Below are positions 5,213 through 40,985 of a stretch of 44,786 nt of DNA, one piece after another (the stretch's first letter is position 1; every line of letters begins with the position of its first letter). The DNA comes from Candidatus Aminicenantales bacterium (GTDB taxonomy: Bacteria > Acidobacteriota > Aminicenantia > Aminicenantales > Saccharicenantaceae). A program made the translations under genes and the position numbers. A model generated the notes under the pieces. It did no database searches. It saw nothing but the letters and a program-made list of their open reading frames with translations, and was not told the DNA's origin. The stretch is from contig JBEKXF010000025.1 in the NCBI GenBank assembly GCA_049512315.1, positions 1-44,786 on the forward strand, written 5' to 3'.

Positions 5213-6655
5213 TCAGAAGGACTTGAGCTTCTGCCCGGGCACGGACAACTGGATGGCCTTGAGAGCCTTGAGCTCGATCTGGCGGATCCGCTCCCGGGTC
5301 AGATTGAAGTGCTGGCCGACTTCTTCGAGGGTGTATTCGCGCCCGTCGCCGAGGCCGTACCTCATCCGGAGGACCATGGTCTCCCTTTCGGGCAGCGTCC
5401 GGAGCGCGGCCTCGATCTGCTCGCGGAGGTTGATATGGATCACCGTGTCGGGAGGGGAGGGGAAGGACTTATCCTCGAGCAGGTCGCCGAGGGCGCCTTC
5501 GCCGTTCTCGCCGAGCGGCGTTTCGATCGAAACGGGGTCCTGAGAGCTGTACATCATCTCGAGGACCTTGTTCACGGGGAGGTTCATCTTCTGGGCCAGG
5601 TCCTCAGGGGAGGGCGCCTTGCCCCGCTCCTGGACGACGGTCTGGGAGATCTTCTTGAGCCTGTGGATGGTTTCCGTTAAATGGACGGGGATGCGGATGG
5701 TCCGGCCCTGGTCGGCGATAGCCCGGGTGATGGACTGCCGGATCCACCACGTCGCGTAGGTCGAGAACTTGTGGCCCCGCCGGTAATCGAACTTCTCGGC
5801 CGCCCGCATCAGTCCGATATTGCCTTCCTGGATGAGGTCCAGGAGCTGGAGGCCGCGGCCCTGGTATTTCTTGGCGATGGAGACGACGAGCCGGAGGTTG
5901 GCCGAGACGAGCTCGTTTTTGGCCCGGTCCTTGGCCCTCTTTCCCGCGGCGACGGCCTGGAGAGTGGCCCGGACCTCTCTCCGGGCCAGCTTCGGGCACT
6001 TGCCCAAGCGCTCCTTCAGGCGCGCCTGGACCCGGTCGATGATCCGGTCCTTTTGCTCCGGCTTGATGTCCAGGCCGCGGGCGAGCTGGATCATCCGGAC
6101 GAGCAGGCGTCCCCTGGCGGTCCTGTTCCGGACCAGAGGCCGGACCTTGGCCAGCCGGGCGTTCAAGGCCTTGATCCGGCGGATCCTGTCCAGGATATCG
6201 TCCTTCCTGGCCTCGAGGTTCTCCTCCGAAAAATCCTCTTCAGCTATTGTAAAGAATCTTAACAAACACTCCGGGTTCTTCTTGATCATTGTTTCGATAG
6301 CCAGGATCTCATCGAGGGTCAAGGGGGTTTTGGCCAGGGCCTTGAAGATCGCCCTGTCGCCTTTTTCCATCCTCCGGGCCAGTGAGATCTCCTGGTCCCT
6401 GGACAAGAGCAGGATGCTCCCCATCTCCCGGAGATAGATCTTCACCAGGTCGGCGGTCTGCTCCATGTCCTCGGGGGAGGCCAGGCCCTTCCCGTTGGAC
6501 GGGGCGTCGTTCTTCGGCGCGTCGAACCGGGCGGGCGGGGAGGCCGACTCGGCGGACGGAAAGGCTTCTTCTTCCTCGGGGAATAAGGTATCCGAGCTGA
6601 CCCTGGGGATCAGGCTCAAGATTTCCTCTTTTTTGAACTTATATTGCGTGGCCAT
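5213..6655 (-). CDS. RNA polymerase sigma-70 factor, RpoD/RpoS-like paralogue
   Basis: Region 1.2 [11 protein letters not shown]; region 2 [36 protein letters not shown]; region 4 [20 protein letters not shown]. Short N-terminus and no dnaG neighbour. Confidence 0.92.
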
Positions 6656-7106: not shown

Positions 7107-8069
7107 TCAATGGCAGACCATACCGTGCTTTTCGAAGTACTTTTGGTGATCGTCCTCGGCCGGGTAAAAGGCCCCTGCCGGAACAAGCTCCGTCGCCAGG
7201 GACTCCTTGAAACGTCCCGACGCCCCGAGTTCCGCCATGACCTTTGCGGCGGTCTTTTTTTGTTTTTCGCCGTCGAAGAAGATCGCCGAGCGGTACTGGG
7301 TGCCGCGGTCCGGACCCTGACGATTGACCTGAGTGGGGTCGTGGAGGCTGAAGAATTGCCGGACGAGATCTTCGTAGCTGATCTTGACGGGGTCGAACGT
7401 CAGCCGGACGGCCTCCGCGTGTCCCGTTTGATCGGTGCAAACGTCCTCGTACGTGGGATTGGCCGCTTTCCCGCCCGTGTAGCCGACGACCGTCGAAAGG
7501 ACGCCCGGGATCTGCCCGAGCTTGTATTCGACACCCCAAAAACAGCCGGCGGCGAAGGTCGCGGTCTCGGCCTTTGGCCCTTCCTTTCCCGCCTCTGCTG
7601 ACTGCTCCTCGTCTGCCGTGCCCGACGGGCCCGCCGTCGCTTTCTCCCCGCGGCCTTTCGCCACCGGCTCGTCGGGGACGAAATCCAGGGACGCCGAGTT
7701 GATGCAGTAGTGGAGGAAGGTCGGTTCCGGGCCGTCGTCGAAGACATGGCCCAAGTGGGCGCCGCAGGGGGCGCAGCGGACCTCGACCCGCTTCATGATC
7801 AGGGAAAAGTCGTCCTTGTATACGAGGTTCTTATCGTCGACCGGGATCGTGAAGCTCGGCCAGCCCGTCCCGTGGTCGTACTTCGCCTCCGACCGGAAAA
7901 GGGGGGTGCCGCAGCCCGCGCAGATATACAATCCGGCTTCCCAGAAATCGTCGTACTCGCCCTGGAACGGCTGTTCGGTCCGGCCCTGCCGCATGACCTG
8001 ATAGCGTTCAGGGGTCAGGATCTTTTTCCACTCACTGTCCGTTTTCTTGATCTTCCTGGGCATATTCAT
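7107..8069 (-). CDS. msrAB: Bifunctional peptide-methionine sulfoxide reductase, MsrB-MsrA fusion
   Basis: MsrB: CAGC and CAPC Zn motifs, GWPSF, HLGHVF, YCINS. MsrA: AAGCFWG, GHAEAV, QGPDRGTQYRS, FYPAEDDHQKY. Confidence 0.95.
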   Translation of the reverse strand: MNMPRKIKKTDSEWKKILTPERYQVMRQGRTEQPFQGEYDDFWEAGLYICAGCGTPLFRSEAKYDHGTGWPSFTIPVDDKNLVYKDDFSLIMKRVEVRCAPCGAHLGHVFDDGPEPTFLHYCINSASLDFVPDEPVAKGRGEKATAGPSGTADEEQSAEAGKEGPKAETATFAAGCFWGVEYKLGQIPGVLSTVVGYTGGKAANPTYEDVCTDQTGHAEAVRLTFDPVKISYEDLVRQFFSLHDPTQVNRQGPDRGTQYRSAIFFDGEKQKKTAAKVMAELGASGRFKESLATELVPAGAFYPAEDDHQKYFEKHGMVCH

Positions 8070-8251
8070 TCCTCACGACATGGGCGTCGCTCGAAAGACC
8101 GACCTTTATATTAGTCGCCAAAGCCCCACAATGGCTGTCACCGACGGGTATCCCGTTTTTCGACTCTGGATCTCTTGTACCATAGAGAAAATGGGACGTC
8201 AAACGCGCCCGGCCGGCTGGGCGAAAAAGTGAAATATTCCAAATTTTTCCG

Positions 8252-8281
8252 TTGACTTTCAGTAAACCCGTTCACTATAAT
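8252..8281 (+). promoter_or_regulatory. Near-consensus sigma70 promoter with no downstream sense CDS
   Basis: TTGACT (8252-8257)-N18-TATAAT (8276-8281), with an AT-rich tract upstream. Confidence 0.65.
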
Positions 8282-8287
8282 GGAATC

Positions 8288-8358
8288 GCTGGCTGGAGAG
8301 GGATCCTCCTTAGCCCCGCTTCCTTTTCCTTTGAAACCTTGGCGCCTCACCAGCCAGC
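8288..8358 (+). ncRNA. Candidate small RNA (14-bp terminal stem enclosing a CU-rich loop)
   Basis: gctggctggagagg (8288-8301) pairs with cctcaccagccagc (8345-8358) with one mismatch. The stem starts 7 nt after TATAAT. Confidence 0.5.
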
Positions 8359-8424
8359 CTTCTTATCCATCAAGCAAAAATCTTTCAACACTGACAGGAT
8401 TTCTCCGCCCGGGCCGCCGGGACG

Positions 8425-9390
8425 TCACGGGTGGGACGCCGCCTTGCTCCGCTTCTGCTGATACATGAGATAGTCGGCGTGGGCCAGGAAGTCCTCCAGC
8501 GAGGAAAACTTTCTCAGGTCATAAAAGACGATTCCCATGCTCAATGACACGTGGAGACGCTTGGGGTTGGCCAGGTTGTGGGTCCGGATCTTTTCGTCGA
8601 TCCGGCCGAGGAGGATCTTCTCGCCGCCCCGCTTCGACCTCATGGCGAGAATGGCGAACTCGTCGCCTCCGATCCGGGCGATGATGTCGCTGTCCCGGAG
8701 GATCTCCCTGAGGATCGCAGCTACGGCCTCGAGGACGCGGTCCCCGGCCGGGTGCCCGAAGGTATCGTTGATTTGCTTCAAGTCGTCGACATCGAGGTAG
8801 AGGAGGAAGACGTCTTTCCGGAGGCGCTTGGCGATCTTCATCTGCTGCTGCCCCAGGGTGAAGAAGCCGCGGCGGTTGTTGAGCCCAGTCAAGTCGTCGG
8901 TGAGGGAGAGGCTTTCGAGCTTTTCATTGCCCGCCCGGAGCTTCTGGAGAGCCTGCTTCAGTCTTTTTTCCGCCCGTTTCCTCTCGGTGATGTCCAGGAG
9001 GATTCCGTCGAAGAACTGAGTCCTCCCGTTCGGACCCTTGATGGCCTGGCAGTAGTCCCGGACCCAGAACCTGCGGCCTTCGGCGCCCCGAAGCTCGAAT
9101 TCCGTGAAATAGCGGGGTTTTTTGTGCAGCTTTTCGAGGTGCATCGACCGGTCCGTCTTCTTGACGTAGAAGTCCTCGACGTTGAAGCTGAGGAGCCCGG
9201 CGGGCATTTTGACCCCCAGCATTCGGGCCAGAGCGGGGTTGGCCTCGATGAACGTCCCGTCCGGGGTCGTCCGATAGACGCCGACGGGGAGGTTCTCGAC
9301 GAGGGCGCGGTAGCGCTTTTCACTAACCCGAAGAGCCTCTTCGACCATCTTGCGATGGGGAAGCTGATCGGACATCTTGTTTTTTCCCAT
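8425..9390 (-). CDS. PAS-domain diguanylate cyclase
   Basis: PAS/PAC (YRALVENLPVGVY...DITERKRAE), coiled coil, DDLTGLNNRR, intact RIGGDEF, RDSD I-site. Start could be 9390 or 9375. Confidence 0.93.
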   Translation of the reverse strand: MGKNKMSDQLPHRKMVEEALRVSEKRYRALVENLPVGVYRTTPDGTFIEANPALARMLGVKMPAGLLSFNVEDFYVKKTDRSMHLEKLHKKPRYFTEFELRGAEGRRFWVRDYCQAIKGPNGRTQFFDGILLDITERKRAEKRLKQALQKLRAGNEKLESLSLTDDLTGLNNRRGFFTLGQQQMKIAKRLRKDVFLLYLDVDDLKQINDTFGHPAGDRVLEAVAAILREILRDSDIIARIGGDEFAILAMRSKRGGEKILLGRIDEKIRTHNLANPKRLHVSLSMGIVFYDLRKFSSLEDFLAHADYLMYQQKRSKAASHP

Positions 9391-38939: not shown

Positions 38940-40985
38940 TTAGCTTGGCAGGATCGCCTCAACTTTTGCGATTTGGGAATCCGCGGGGAGGGGGATTTCG
39001 ATTCCGGCCTTCCGATATGGATGAAACCTGCCTTCGATTCGGTAGCCGGGTTTTTCGCGGCGCCGGGCCTTTCTGACGGTCATCTCGAGCCGGCCGCCGC
39101 GGAGACGCACGGAGGCCTCGATCGACTTCAAGCCGCGAAGGAGCCGCGGCCGGAGCCGGAGGCTTTTCTCCGAGGGCCGGACGCCCAGGATGTGGTGGAT
39201 GAAAAGGAAGAGAATCTCGGCCCAGACCCAGGGGACGATGCCGACCTGGGGGTAGGGAGGGACGGGTCGCGGGCCGTAAAACTCGAACCACGTGCCGGAC
39301 CCTGACCCGGGCAGGCGGCCGAGCCACTCTAGGACGCGGCGAACCTTCCGGTCGTTCCCGGCTTCGAAGTTGGCTCGGGCAACGAACAGCGAGGCGAACG
39401 GCCACGGCCCGGGGGAGTCCGGCTCGGAGGTCACATGGTAGCGGCCGTAGCCGCCGCCGGTCCAGCGCTGGTCCCAGAGCAATTCGAGGGAAGCCAAGGT
39501 ACGGCGGGCGATGCGGCCGGCCGGCTCGACGAATTCCCAGGCGATGGGCAGGGCTGCCGAAGTGTCGGGGTTGAGGAGATGGCGGCCTTTTTCGAAGAGC
39601 GGCGCTTGGACAGGAAGGAGCGAGTCAGGCAGGGGTCTGACCTCCGCCTGGACCCGGCCATCGGTGCCGCGCCTCTTGATGAGCCGGCCGTTCTCGACGA
39701 GGGAGAATCGCCCCCGGCCGAGGGCCGTCTTTTTCAGGCGGGCGGACGCGTTCCGCCACGCCCGGGCCTTCCGGGCATCGCCCATCCGGCGGGCGAGGCG
39801 GGCCGCGGAATCCAGGCCCATGGAGACGAAGAGCTGGTGAGCCAGCTCCATCCCGTCGCGGATCCCGTGCGCGCTGTGACGTTCCCAGAACTCCCGCCGG
39901 TTCGAAAGAAGCCCCGAGCCCGGGTGGCGGAAAACCTTCCTGAGGGGGAAGTCGGCCGCCTTGATGATCTTGGCCCGATGGCGGGGGAGGAGACTCATGT
40001 CCCCCGTCCAGTTGATATAGTTCTCGAGGGCGAAAAGAAGGACCCCGTTCTGGTCGAACTCGCTCTCCTCCCACGACCGGAGCCGGCTCGAATCCATGGT
40101 CGCCCCTTCCTTGCTGACGAACCGATCGAGGAGCCGGTCGAGGATGGCCCGGGCCGGGCCGAACTGGCCGGACATGGCCAGGGCCATGGCGATGAAGGCC
40201 TGGTCCCTGACCCATTCGAGGTTGTATTGCCAGATCCCGCCGTCGAGCTTTCCCGAGCTCGCCACGGCCGCCCGGAGTCCGAATTTCGCTGCGGAGAAAA
40301 AGCGATCGAGGAGGAGTTCAGAGGCATGCCACGATGCGGTTTCCGCCCAGTACGTTGCCTCGTCCGGGTCGATCTCCAAGCTCGCGCCGAGCGAAAGCCT
40401 GACGGTCGGCTTGGAGCCGGCGTGGAGGATCCTGTACTCGAAAACGGCCGTCCTCTTTTCCCGGCCTTGGAACCGCAGGCTCTTTTCGAGAACGCGGCCC
40501 CTGACGCCCGTCCTGACGCCCGTCCTGACGCGCGCCCTGCATTCGCCAGGCTCGAGATGGGTCACCGTGACTTGCCGGATGAGCCGGGGAGTCTTACGGT
40601 CGGGGCAACAGAAAAGCTCGCTGACCTGGAATGGTCCATCCCGCCAGGCGACGTCGACCCGGGGCACCAGCCCCTCCAGGGCCCACTGGGCCCGGACGGA
40701 CTTCCCGGCAGGCCGATAAACGTTCCGGCCTTCGACGATCGAGATCTGCGTCGGAACGATTCCGGAAACGGGGTCGAAGGTCAGGGCGCGCCGCTTCGGC
40801 CCCAGCCGCTCGGGGTCCATGATGAGCAGGCCGGCCGCTGTGGCTCCGGGTGCGCCGCAGACTTGGACGGCCGCTTGGATCAGGCCATTCCCGAGGAAAA
40901 AGTATTCGACTCCCGGGAGGGTCGTCCTGGCGTCGGCGGGCCCTTTCGAGGGGTCGTCGGCATAGAAGTGTTCTTTGACTTCCAT
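38940..40985 (-). CDS. Six-hairpin (alpha/alpha)6 glycosidase, GH15-like
   Basis: Y.LEWVRD, E.DQNG, EFWER, GGYGRY...S, PWP and HHILGVRP motifs resemble GH15-type catalytic barrels. Exact family not determinable by eye. Confidence 0.65.
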   Translation of the reverse strand: MEVKEHFYADDPSKGPADARTTLPGVEYFFLGNGLIQAAVQVCGAPGATAAGLLIMDPERLGPKRRALTFDPVSGIVPTQISIVEGRNVYRPAGKSVRAQWALEGLVPRVDVAWRDGPFQVSELFCCPDRKTPRLIRQVTVTHLEPGECRARVRTGVRTGVRGRVLEKSLRFQGREKRTAVFEYRILHAGSKPTVRLSLGASLEIDPDEATYWAETASWHASELLLDRFFSAAKFGLRAAVASSGKLDGGIWQYNLEWVRDQAFIAMALAMSGQFGPARAILDRLLDRFVSKEGATMDSSRLRSWEESEFDQNGVLLFALENYINWTGDMSLLPRHRAKIIKAADFPLRKVFRHPGSGLLSNRREFWERHSAHGIRDGMELAHQLFVSMGLDSAARLARRMGDARKARAWRNASARLKKTALGRGRFSLVENGRLIKRRGTDGRVQAEVRPLPDSLLPVQAPLFEKGRHLLNPDTSAALPIAWEFVEPAGRIARRTLASLELLWDQRWTGGGYGRYHVTSEPDSPGPWPFASLFVARANFEAGNDRKVRRVLEWLGRLPGSGSGTWFEFYGPRPVPPYPQVGIVPWVWAEILFLFIHHILGVRPSEKSLRLRPRLLRGLKSIEASVRLRGGRLEMTVRKARRREKPGYRIEGRFHPYRKAGIEIPLPADSQIAKVEAILPS

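Follow-up and report, generated by a model that had tools for sequence, protein, structure and literature searches.

What is transcribed from the strongest promoter-like sequence of a 44,786-nucleotide (nt) stretch of DNA, when that sequence points into a 355-nt gap whose two neighbouring genes both lie on the opposite strand? The stretch, called the window below, comprises positions 1 to 44,786 of contig JBEKXF010000025.1 from a Candidatus Aminicenantales bacterium (GenBank assembly GCA_049512315.1). An earlier sequence-only reading of the gap had proposed an unannotated, trans-acting small RNA (sRNA) closed by a stem, with a loop that mimics the 3′ tail of the 16S rRNA and thereby targets Shine-Dalgarno (SD) sequences. 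The conservation of the element and the position of its promoter now uphold an independently transcribed plus-strand sRNA gene with its start placed at the first stem base, and we regard this conserved and uncatalogued gene as very probably real. Its C/U-rich loop is predicted to pair with the leader and first codons of one mRNA, encoding a PilZ-like protein, and the evidence from sequence points to this one conserved target rather than to SD sequences generally.

The promoter is composed of a −35 box TTGACT (8252-8257, +) and a −10 box TATAAT (8276-8281, +), each read directly and returned by a promoter scan, with an 18-nt spacer (8258-8275, +) whose sequence is free to vary among relatives. 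Scoring 11/12, TTGACT-N18-TATAAT headed the 12 promoter-like sites of the whole window, of which the runners-up scored 10/12, in agreement with its earlier description as the best promoter of the window, aimed into a gap between two minus-strand genes. The first base of the stem likewise fits the expected transcription start, as G8288 lies 6 nt past the −10 box. The arrangement recurs with the homologous RNAs: in an alignment of 20 loci TTGAC(A/T)-N17/18-TATAAT stands at a constant distance upstream of the element with a free spacer, and of 114 distinct homologous copies whose upstream 50 nt are available, 81 fitted a strict and 93 a relaxed −35/−10 pattern. The −35 box of these 93 was TTGACA in 71 and TTGACT in 22, the −10 box was TATAAT in 84, the spacer measured 18 nt in 83, and 83 had the −10 box exactly 6 nt from the first stem base. 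The remaining 21 copies, when inspected by eye, mostly carry TTGAC(A/T) and a TATAAT-like box too, yet 11-15 nt ahead of the stem. The RNA is therefore equipped with a promoter of its own, separate from the flanking genes, as is expected of a trans-encoded sRNA.

The element was found throughout the order, as the search for homologues suggested by the sequence-only reading showed. A covariance model (R1) was built from it, which scores the 71-nt RNA body (8288-8358, +), with G8288 as its inferred start and the final base of the stem as its other limit, at 106.8 bits, and was run on 151 genomes of the order (titled Candidatus Aminicenantes or Aminicenantales) and on 150 other genomes of the phylum. 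Matches were obtained in 118 of the 151 genomes, 85 of the 106 high-quality ones, 48 of 60 genera and all nine families sampled, mostly with one copy per genome. No convincing match was found in the even sample of 150 other phylum genomes (one reached 29 bits), and none in the 11 genomes that represent other orders of its class. A DNA search with the whole 355-nt gap recovered the core in 27 of 40 relatives at 84-96% identity, with matches shrinking to ∼70-110 nt outside the genus; consistently, the 71-nt element is nearly invariant in the 20-locus alignment while outside the genus neither flank can be aligned. Of the 74 positions that this copy occupies in alignment A2, 57 fall in columns that are invariant over 28 sequence variants. 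The RNA is about as conserved as the 16S rRNA, which shows 92-96% identity among four relatives drawn from three families. When species-representative genomes were scanned for exact 20-mers, 99 stretches were obtained; nearly all of the best 80 are titled Candidatus Aminicenantes, Aminicenantales, Saccharicenans or Acidobacteriota metagenome-assembled genomes, and the rest of these 80 are generic ‘uncultured Eubacteriales’ and single records of Clostridiales and Desulfaltia. No Rfam family was matched, since cmscan with the 4227 families of Rfam 15 over 7800-8800 (E up to 10) returned chance matches only (mir-550, snoR113 and RFPL3-AS1_2).

Weak second copies scoring 30-47 bits were also observed in four genomes (L170, L172, L174 and L176 in G306, G273, G230 and G220, respectively). 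They keep the GCUGGCUGG...CAGCC(A/G)GC stem around a C/U-rich interior of different sequence, L174 holding ACCUCCUUU followed by a T-run, and L170 and L172 being without the TTGAC box. These copies may be diverging paralogues with other targets.

The genes around the element bear on whether it is a gene at all. On the divergent side, 13 of the 20 loci (L003-L021), spread over five genera, have an msrB-msrA fusion (here at 7107-8069, −, with its start facing the sRNA promoter); three g7 loci (L012, L017 and L018) have a HAD hydrolase in its place, and in L005, L008, L013 and L020 the open reading frame (ORF) on that side is without a family match. The gene downstream, here a PAS-GGDEF gene (8425-9390, −) that ends 66 nt past the sRNA stem, differs by locus, being PAS-GGDEF, peptidase S9, DUF5777, TPR or sigma-70, mostly in convergent orientation. 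Because the neighbours change, the element is neither a leader nor a hairpin with termination of the GGDEF gene as its sole role, an outcome that the sequence-only reading had named as fatal to its proposal. A broader form of that objection denies the RNA any gene of its own and takes the sequence for the GGDEF terminator, a DNA-level site or, as had been offered in place of the plus-strand RNA, a minus-strand CsrA sponge with GGA motifs. The hairpin does lie 66 nt past the GGDEF stop and is followed on the minus strand by the A/U-rich complement of the −10 box, so it could stop a convergent transcript. We nevertheless consider this account highly improbable, as the element and its plus-strand promoter are kept beside unrelated downstream genes in nine families, the region to the right of the element, with the proposed minus-strand promoter, is not conserved across the 20 loci, and CsrA (PF02599) was not found in the organism's own genome, which is 96.6% complete.

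Three further observations concern the neighbourhood. The msrB-msrA fusion stays beside the sRNA promoter while the other neighbour changes, and its start region has no special complementarity to the RNA (rank 1207/2526 in the comparison described below). A sigma-70 family gene of 480 aa with regions 1.2, 2, 3 and 4 (rpoD-like) lies at 5213-6655 (−), 1.6 kb from the sRNA gene; and at locus L020, in another family, a sigma-70 gene is located directly downstream of the sRNA on the same strand.

The RNA is closed by pairing of its first with its last 14 nt, i.e. the 5′ arm GCUGGCUGGAGAGG (8288-8301, +) and the 3′ arm CCUCACCAGCCAGC (8345-8358, +). The arms and coordinates had been given correctly as a 14-bp stem, with the correction that 13 of the 14 pairs form, A8297 being unpaired and mismatched with A8349. 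At −28.3 kcal/mol (z −2.29; 4 of 200 shuffles were as good), the minimum free energy (MFE) fold of 8288-8375 is modest for this sequence alone, and it is the conservation described above that shows the element to be more than chance. Over 35 distinct sequences, 96.9% of 449 stem cells are paired, and sliding the register lowers this to 21-51%. Among the changes in their stems, one is two-sided (G-C to A-U), and five pairs show one-sided changes that are compatible with wobble pairing. The sequence past the stem is pyrimidine-rich (mean 7.8 of 10 nt in 114 copies), and the true 3′ end probably falls in the pyrimidine-rich tail 8359-8370, with the 3′ arm and the closing stem probably doubling as the terminator hairpin, although the predicted termination is weak here and a terminator scan called no site at 8288-8358 on either strand. 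The region enclosed by the stem is 73% pyrimidine (32/44 nt), as rich as it had been described, and the C/U-rich interior (8302-8344, +) was treated as a single-stranded pairing surface. The MFE fold also has a small inner helix (C30-G57 and its neighbours), which was dropped, as G57 (G8344) varies among G, U and A while its partner stays unchanged.

A genome-wide seed scan singled out C2:194298-194356, where three colinear blocks are complementary to the RNA. The site covers the start of an ORF of 129 aa that lies on another contig, with its ATG at G000:C2:194337, and whose product is termed PilZ-like below. The predicted duplex between the sRNA and this leader comprises 34 bp at a hybrid energy of −48.9 kcal/mol, ranking second among 2526 crude start regions (z −3.9), and none of 500 shuffled interiors did as well; the region ranked first has a doubtful internal GTG start, and among the other start regions C5:61951 (−49.2) and C12:72059 (−46.5), for example, score nearly the same. 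Numbered from G8288, nt 50-57 of the RNA (CCUUGGCG, 8337-8344, +) would pair with CGCCAAGG at −29..−22 of the mRNA, nt 40-45 with −20..−15, nt 31-38 with −13..−6, the SD region AAGGAAGC, nt 25-27 with +3..+5, and nt 15-23 (GAUCCUCCU, 8302-8310, +) with +7..+15, that is, with codons 3-5 AGGAGGAUU. The invariant core CCGCUUCCUUUUCC of the RNA (nt 29-42, 8316-8329, +) is complementary to the GGAAAAGGAAGCGG-type SD region of the PilZ-like mRNA, and within the duplex RNA CUUCCUUUUCC is predicted to pair with leader GGAAAAGGAAG. Thus a C/U-rich interior complementary to a ribosome-binding site, as the sequence-only reading had it, is found, and action on SD sequences in general gives way to one specific conserved target.

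Other searches and candidates were set aside. Genome-wide duplex energies without a start-site filter, like the lists of longest complements, mainly returned unspecific purine-rich sites, as a C/U-rich loop can pair with every SD sequence that is rich in purines. Signal recognition particle (SRP) RNA came into question through a likeness of its domain IV to the complement of the interior, and the duplex with the organism's own SRP RNA was matched by 33 of 300 shuffles. On C4 a perfect complement of 14 nt was located within coding sequence, and chance alone would produce about one match of this kind; a leader on C11 (ATG at 40921) has 15 contiguous pairs to the linker region, for which ∼90 sites are expected genome-wide. 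As local targets, the start regions of msrBA and the GGDEF gene ranked only 1207 and 2416 of 2526.

The resemblance to the 16S tail that had been pointed out is present. The RNA reads GGAUCCUCCUUA at 8301-8312, and the 16S rRNAs of four relatives end in ...GGAUCACCUCCUUU, so that the likeness amounts to GGAUC and CUCCUU with a 2-nt gap; the relatives were used because the only 16S rRNA gene of the assembly (G000:C4:166745-167597, model positions 9-902) is cut at a contig end, leaving its own anti-SD tail unreadable. As a conserved determinant the mimicry fails. In the five genomes of genus g130 (L165-L169), GGAUCCUCCUUAG is swapped for GGAUCUUUCGAG, GGAAUUUUCGAG or GGUUUUUUCGAG, with the remainder of the RNA invariant, AGCCCCGCUUCCUUUUC and AAACCUUGGCGCC included; in the present genome CCUCC would pair with target codons 3-5 (AGG AGG AU), not with an SD sequence. 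Judged from these sequences, the 16S-tail mimicry is incidental and the conserved functional part is CCGCUUCCUUUUCC.

The same data weigh on a general anti-SD RNA, in which CCUCCUU and CUUCCUUUUCCUUU would bind many SD sequences, or the loop would imitate the 16S tail and titrate a tail-binding factor. With G-U pairs allowed, 91 of the 2528 crude start regions indeed offer the interior at least 12 contiguous pairs, for the most part at purine-rich SD sequences, GGAUCCUCCUU resembles the 16S end GGAUCACCUCCUUU of relatives, and the weak paralogue L174 carries ACCUCCUUU. Still, it is unlikely to be the function of this RNA: U-rich sequence replaces CCUCC in g130 within an otherwise unchanged RNA, the invariant AGCCCCGC and AAACCUUGGCGCC are not complementary to SD sequences yet match the PilZ-like leader, and that leader is outstanding among the start regions (2/2526), far ahead of msrBA and GGDEF.

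The target side was then compared over the order. Homologues of the PilZ-like protein are present in 147 of 151 genomes, about three per genome, and the leader of the best homologue was read in 60 other genomes (61 leaders in total). At the SD position, GGAAAAGGAAGC(GG) is carried by the leaders of most RNA-bearing genomes, and many orthologous leaders have GCCAAG(G) ahead of the SD region. The RNA linker has changed in particular lineages, and the target mirrors these changes. In G010 the RNA has CCUUGAAAC (one U fewer) and the target GUUUCAAGG, 21 nt matching perfectly; in G013 the RNA has CCUUAAAAAC and the target GUUUUUAAGG, 22 nt matching perfectly; and the target of G024 reads GCCAAUUUCAAAGGAAAAGGAAGC. 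Swapping the RNAs among these genomes lowered the predicted stability, from −53.7 for the cognate pair to −48.6 and −47.7 at the G013 target, from −48.9 to −45.1 and −41.0 at the G010 target, and from −48.9 to −40.9 and −44.2 at the G024 target, and the cognate pair of the present genome (G000) was likewise better than the swapped ones. When 32 genomes were compared all against all, the cognate pair was better than the median non-cognate pair in 25, worse in five and tied in two; with one genome per RNA class, it was better in 15 of 22 and worse in five (Wilcoxon p 0.029). The complementary site (≤1 mismatch) was present in 22 of 35 RNA-bearing and in six of 26 RNA-less genomes (Fisher 0.004, a value that overstates the association, the genomes being kin and sampled non-randomly). 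In genus g15 the RNA was found in none of five genomes and the site is missing from all five orthologous leaders (5 mismatches of 12), a co-absence that supports the link between RNA and target. Conserved complementarity with compensatory change is thus seen in family f1, and is weak or missing in genus g130.

Taken together, we assign a probability of roughly two in three to the reading that this sRNA represses the PilZ-like mRNA by base pairing. A near-consensus sigma-70-type promoter would start transcription at or beside G8288, and the product, running from 8288 to about 8360-8370 (+), would be a trans-acting base-pairing sRNA. With its first 14 nt paired to its last 14 nt, both ends would be protected and ∼43 nt of unstructured C/U-rich RNA displayed. 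With the PilZ-like mRNA this loop would form ∼34 bp, from −29 in the leader to +15 within the first codons, and a duplex lying over the SD sequence and start codon would block binding of the 30S subunit and so repress translation; a duplex of that length might also be a substrate of RNase III. Transcription, the ends of the RNA and the direction of regulation are what we infer here rather than observe.

Several results weigh against this account. Repression rather than activation is suggested only by the position of the duplex. The duplex energies are hybrid-only values (RNAduplex) with no accessibility term, and the gene starts come from our own crude caller. Clear co-variation with the target is confined to family f1; the pairing is weak in genus g130, where the cognate pair does not rise above swapped ones (G236, −23.6 versus −25.7; G251, rank 22/22). 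In G027 and G039, for example, the RNA is present and the core site is missing from the best homologue, and conversely six genomes without a detected RNA still have the site; these six are fragmented assemblies from genera in which other members carry the RNA, and may reflect assembly gaps. On the side of the RNA, the covariation looked for in the stem did not materialize beyond the single two-sided change and was no better than in shuffles (86 of 500 do as well), being weak because the stem hardly varies. A run of at least four T within 14 nt past the stem occurs in only 33 of 114 copies, and this copy reads CUUCUUAUCC; with so weak a U-tract in this and most other copies, the position of the 3′ end is uncertain. 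The 129-aa target matched no Pfam family at E up to 1, the PilZ model included, and split-barrel flavin mononucleotide (FMN)-binding proteins score alike in the structure search described below. The element also occurs in public sequencing data. Three or four of six sampled words were present in 20 public runs, seven of which are recorded as RNA, and in the RNA runs X1, X5 and X9 contigs of 641, 1909, 223 and 253 nt cover the element at 95-100% identity. The three longer ones span 8275/8288-8361 and the 223-nt one spans 8328-8363; all four extend into unlike sequence on at least one side, the 5′ side running into promoter-like sequence, so these contigs may be DNA or longer transcripts. From the raw-read run X21 no sequence over the element was recovered.

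The same pairing might also have the opposite outcome, with the RNA activating or stabilizing the mRNA, or with an abundant leader acting as a sponge for an RNA whose main targets are elsewhere. The direction of regulation does rest on position, and C5:61951 (−49.2) and C12:72059 (−46.5) score nearly as well as the PilZ-like leader. We judge such an outcome quite unlikely, given that a duplex over the SD sequence and start codon is the usual geometry of repression and that the other top scorers have dubious start calls.

A protein-centred function has to be weighed as well, on account of the stem. Its 5′ arm is invariant across 28 variants rather than co-varying. A purine-purine mismatch is kept in the closing stem, A-A or A-G at 8296-8297 / 8349-8350: the base opposite A10 (position 62) is A, G, U or C, never the Watson-Crick partner in most copies, and in 13 of the 35 sequences the adjacent pair 9-67 is G-A, so that two purine mismatches stand in tandem (G-A/A-G, alignment A5). 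The kept mismatch could be a recognition feature for a protein. The stem would then be a platform and the loop would titrate an Hfq-like protein, S1 or Rho, the leader complementarity being secondary. A candidate partner exists, in that an Hfq-like Sm protein is encoded on C9; against it, no candidate protein is linked to the locus, where neighbours vary except msrBA, and linker changes mirrored in the target are unexpected for a pure sponge. Such a protein-centred role is rather unlikely.

The Hfq-like frame (G000:C9:102035-102463; L123 1285-1713, +) measures 142 aa when counted from a TTG start. Its C-terminal core resembles Sm/Hfq, scoring 29 bits with the Pfam Hfq model, for which the cut-off is 27; the frame also has a long N-terminal extension and a tail rich in lysine. 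Of the two proteins that the sequence-only reading had wanted checked, csrA was not found, as said above, and hfq is represented by this divergent frame; ProQ was not found in the own genome either, and the C9 frame was the only candidate RNA chaperone found.

As to the target itself, its homologues (at least 120) are unnamed or hypothetical, with no Pfam domain among the matches listed. An AlphaFold2 model from 32 sequences (mean predicted local distance difference test score 80.3) is a small beta-barrel, and the best Foldseek matches in the PDB are the PilZ proteins or domains of MotI/DgrA, Alg44, YcgR, MrkH and BcsA (E from 5e-4, template modelling score 0.43-0.55). By eye only, an arginine-rich N-terminus and RxxxR-like and hSxxG-like (MSHxG) motifs look PilZ-like as well. 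‘PilZ-like’ is accordingly a label at the level of the modelled fold, under which the protein would be expected to bind cyclic di-GMP (c-di-GMP). The promoter of the target gene contains an inverted repeat TCACCCC...N∼13...GGGGTGA (G000:C2:194230-194275; locus L181, ∼130-175), the right arm of which abuts a TTGACC −35 box followed by an CATTTTAG-like −10 box. The repeat is kept in the orthologous leaders of most genera of the order and, from its sequence, looks like an operator for a transcription factor.

Among described RNAs, the closest kind is that of the cuckoo RNAs, CcsR1-4 and α-r14 of Rhodobacter and Sinorhizobium. According to PMC8034643, each CcsR has two hairpins, each with CCUCCUCCC in its loop. 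The present RNA shares with them a C/U-rich, anti-SD-like loop that pairs with mRNAs, and differs in having one closing stem, one 43-nt loop and a single CCUCC, without CCUCCUCCC. It differs further in that CCUCC is dispensable in one genus, that no Rfam family matches it, and that it belongs to Acidobacteriota, not Alphaproteobacteria. No DUF1127 was among the Pfam families beside the element in 20 loci, where no search was aimed at a DUF1127 linkage. The RsaE/RoxS and LhrC-type C-rich sRNAs of Firmicutes have strongly conserved, unpaired C/U-rich motifs that pair with SD regions and repress translation. The present RNA has neither a sequence or Rfam match to them nor their architecture, and whereas they use short UCCC seeds on many targets, it would form one ∼34-bp composite duplex with a single conserved target. 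With classical trans-encoded sRNAs, such as the Hfq-dependent repressors, it shares a promoter of its own, a 3′ hairpin, a conserved single-stranded seed and a co-varying site over the SD sequence and AUG; unlike in those, its 5′ end is tied up in the terminator stem and the duplex is unusually long. Because architecture, Rfam status and lineage differ, and because one long composite duplex with one conserved target is predicted, the RNA belongs to none of cuckoo/CcsR, RsaE/RoxS and LhrC. It is an uncatalogued sRNA family of a familiar kind, and occlusion of an SD sequence by a C/U-rich loop is a textbook mechanism.

A bolder picture, which we put forward as a speculation and think doubtful as a whole, would make this RNA and its target a co-evolving pair that, throughout the order, acts as a post-transcriptional switch for a c-di-GMP receptor-like protein. 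The strong, constitutive-looking promoter and the ∼34-bp near-antisense duplex would keep the PilZ-like protein off, the RNA gene would perhaps have arisen by inverted duplication of the target leader, and the invariant mismatch stem would dock an RNA-binding protein or nuclease in a lineage with only a divergent Hfq-like protein. The Aminicenantales are widespread and uncultured, and a full-text literature search on Aminicenantes with ‘sRNA’ or ‘riboswitch’ found no paper describing a regulatory RNA in them; for this order, sequence alone now provides an sRNA together with its promoter, and predicts one specific target that partly co-varies with it.

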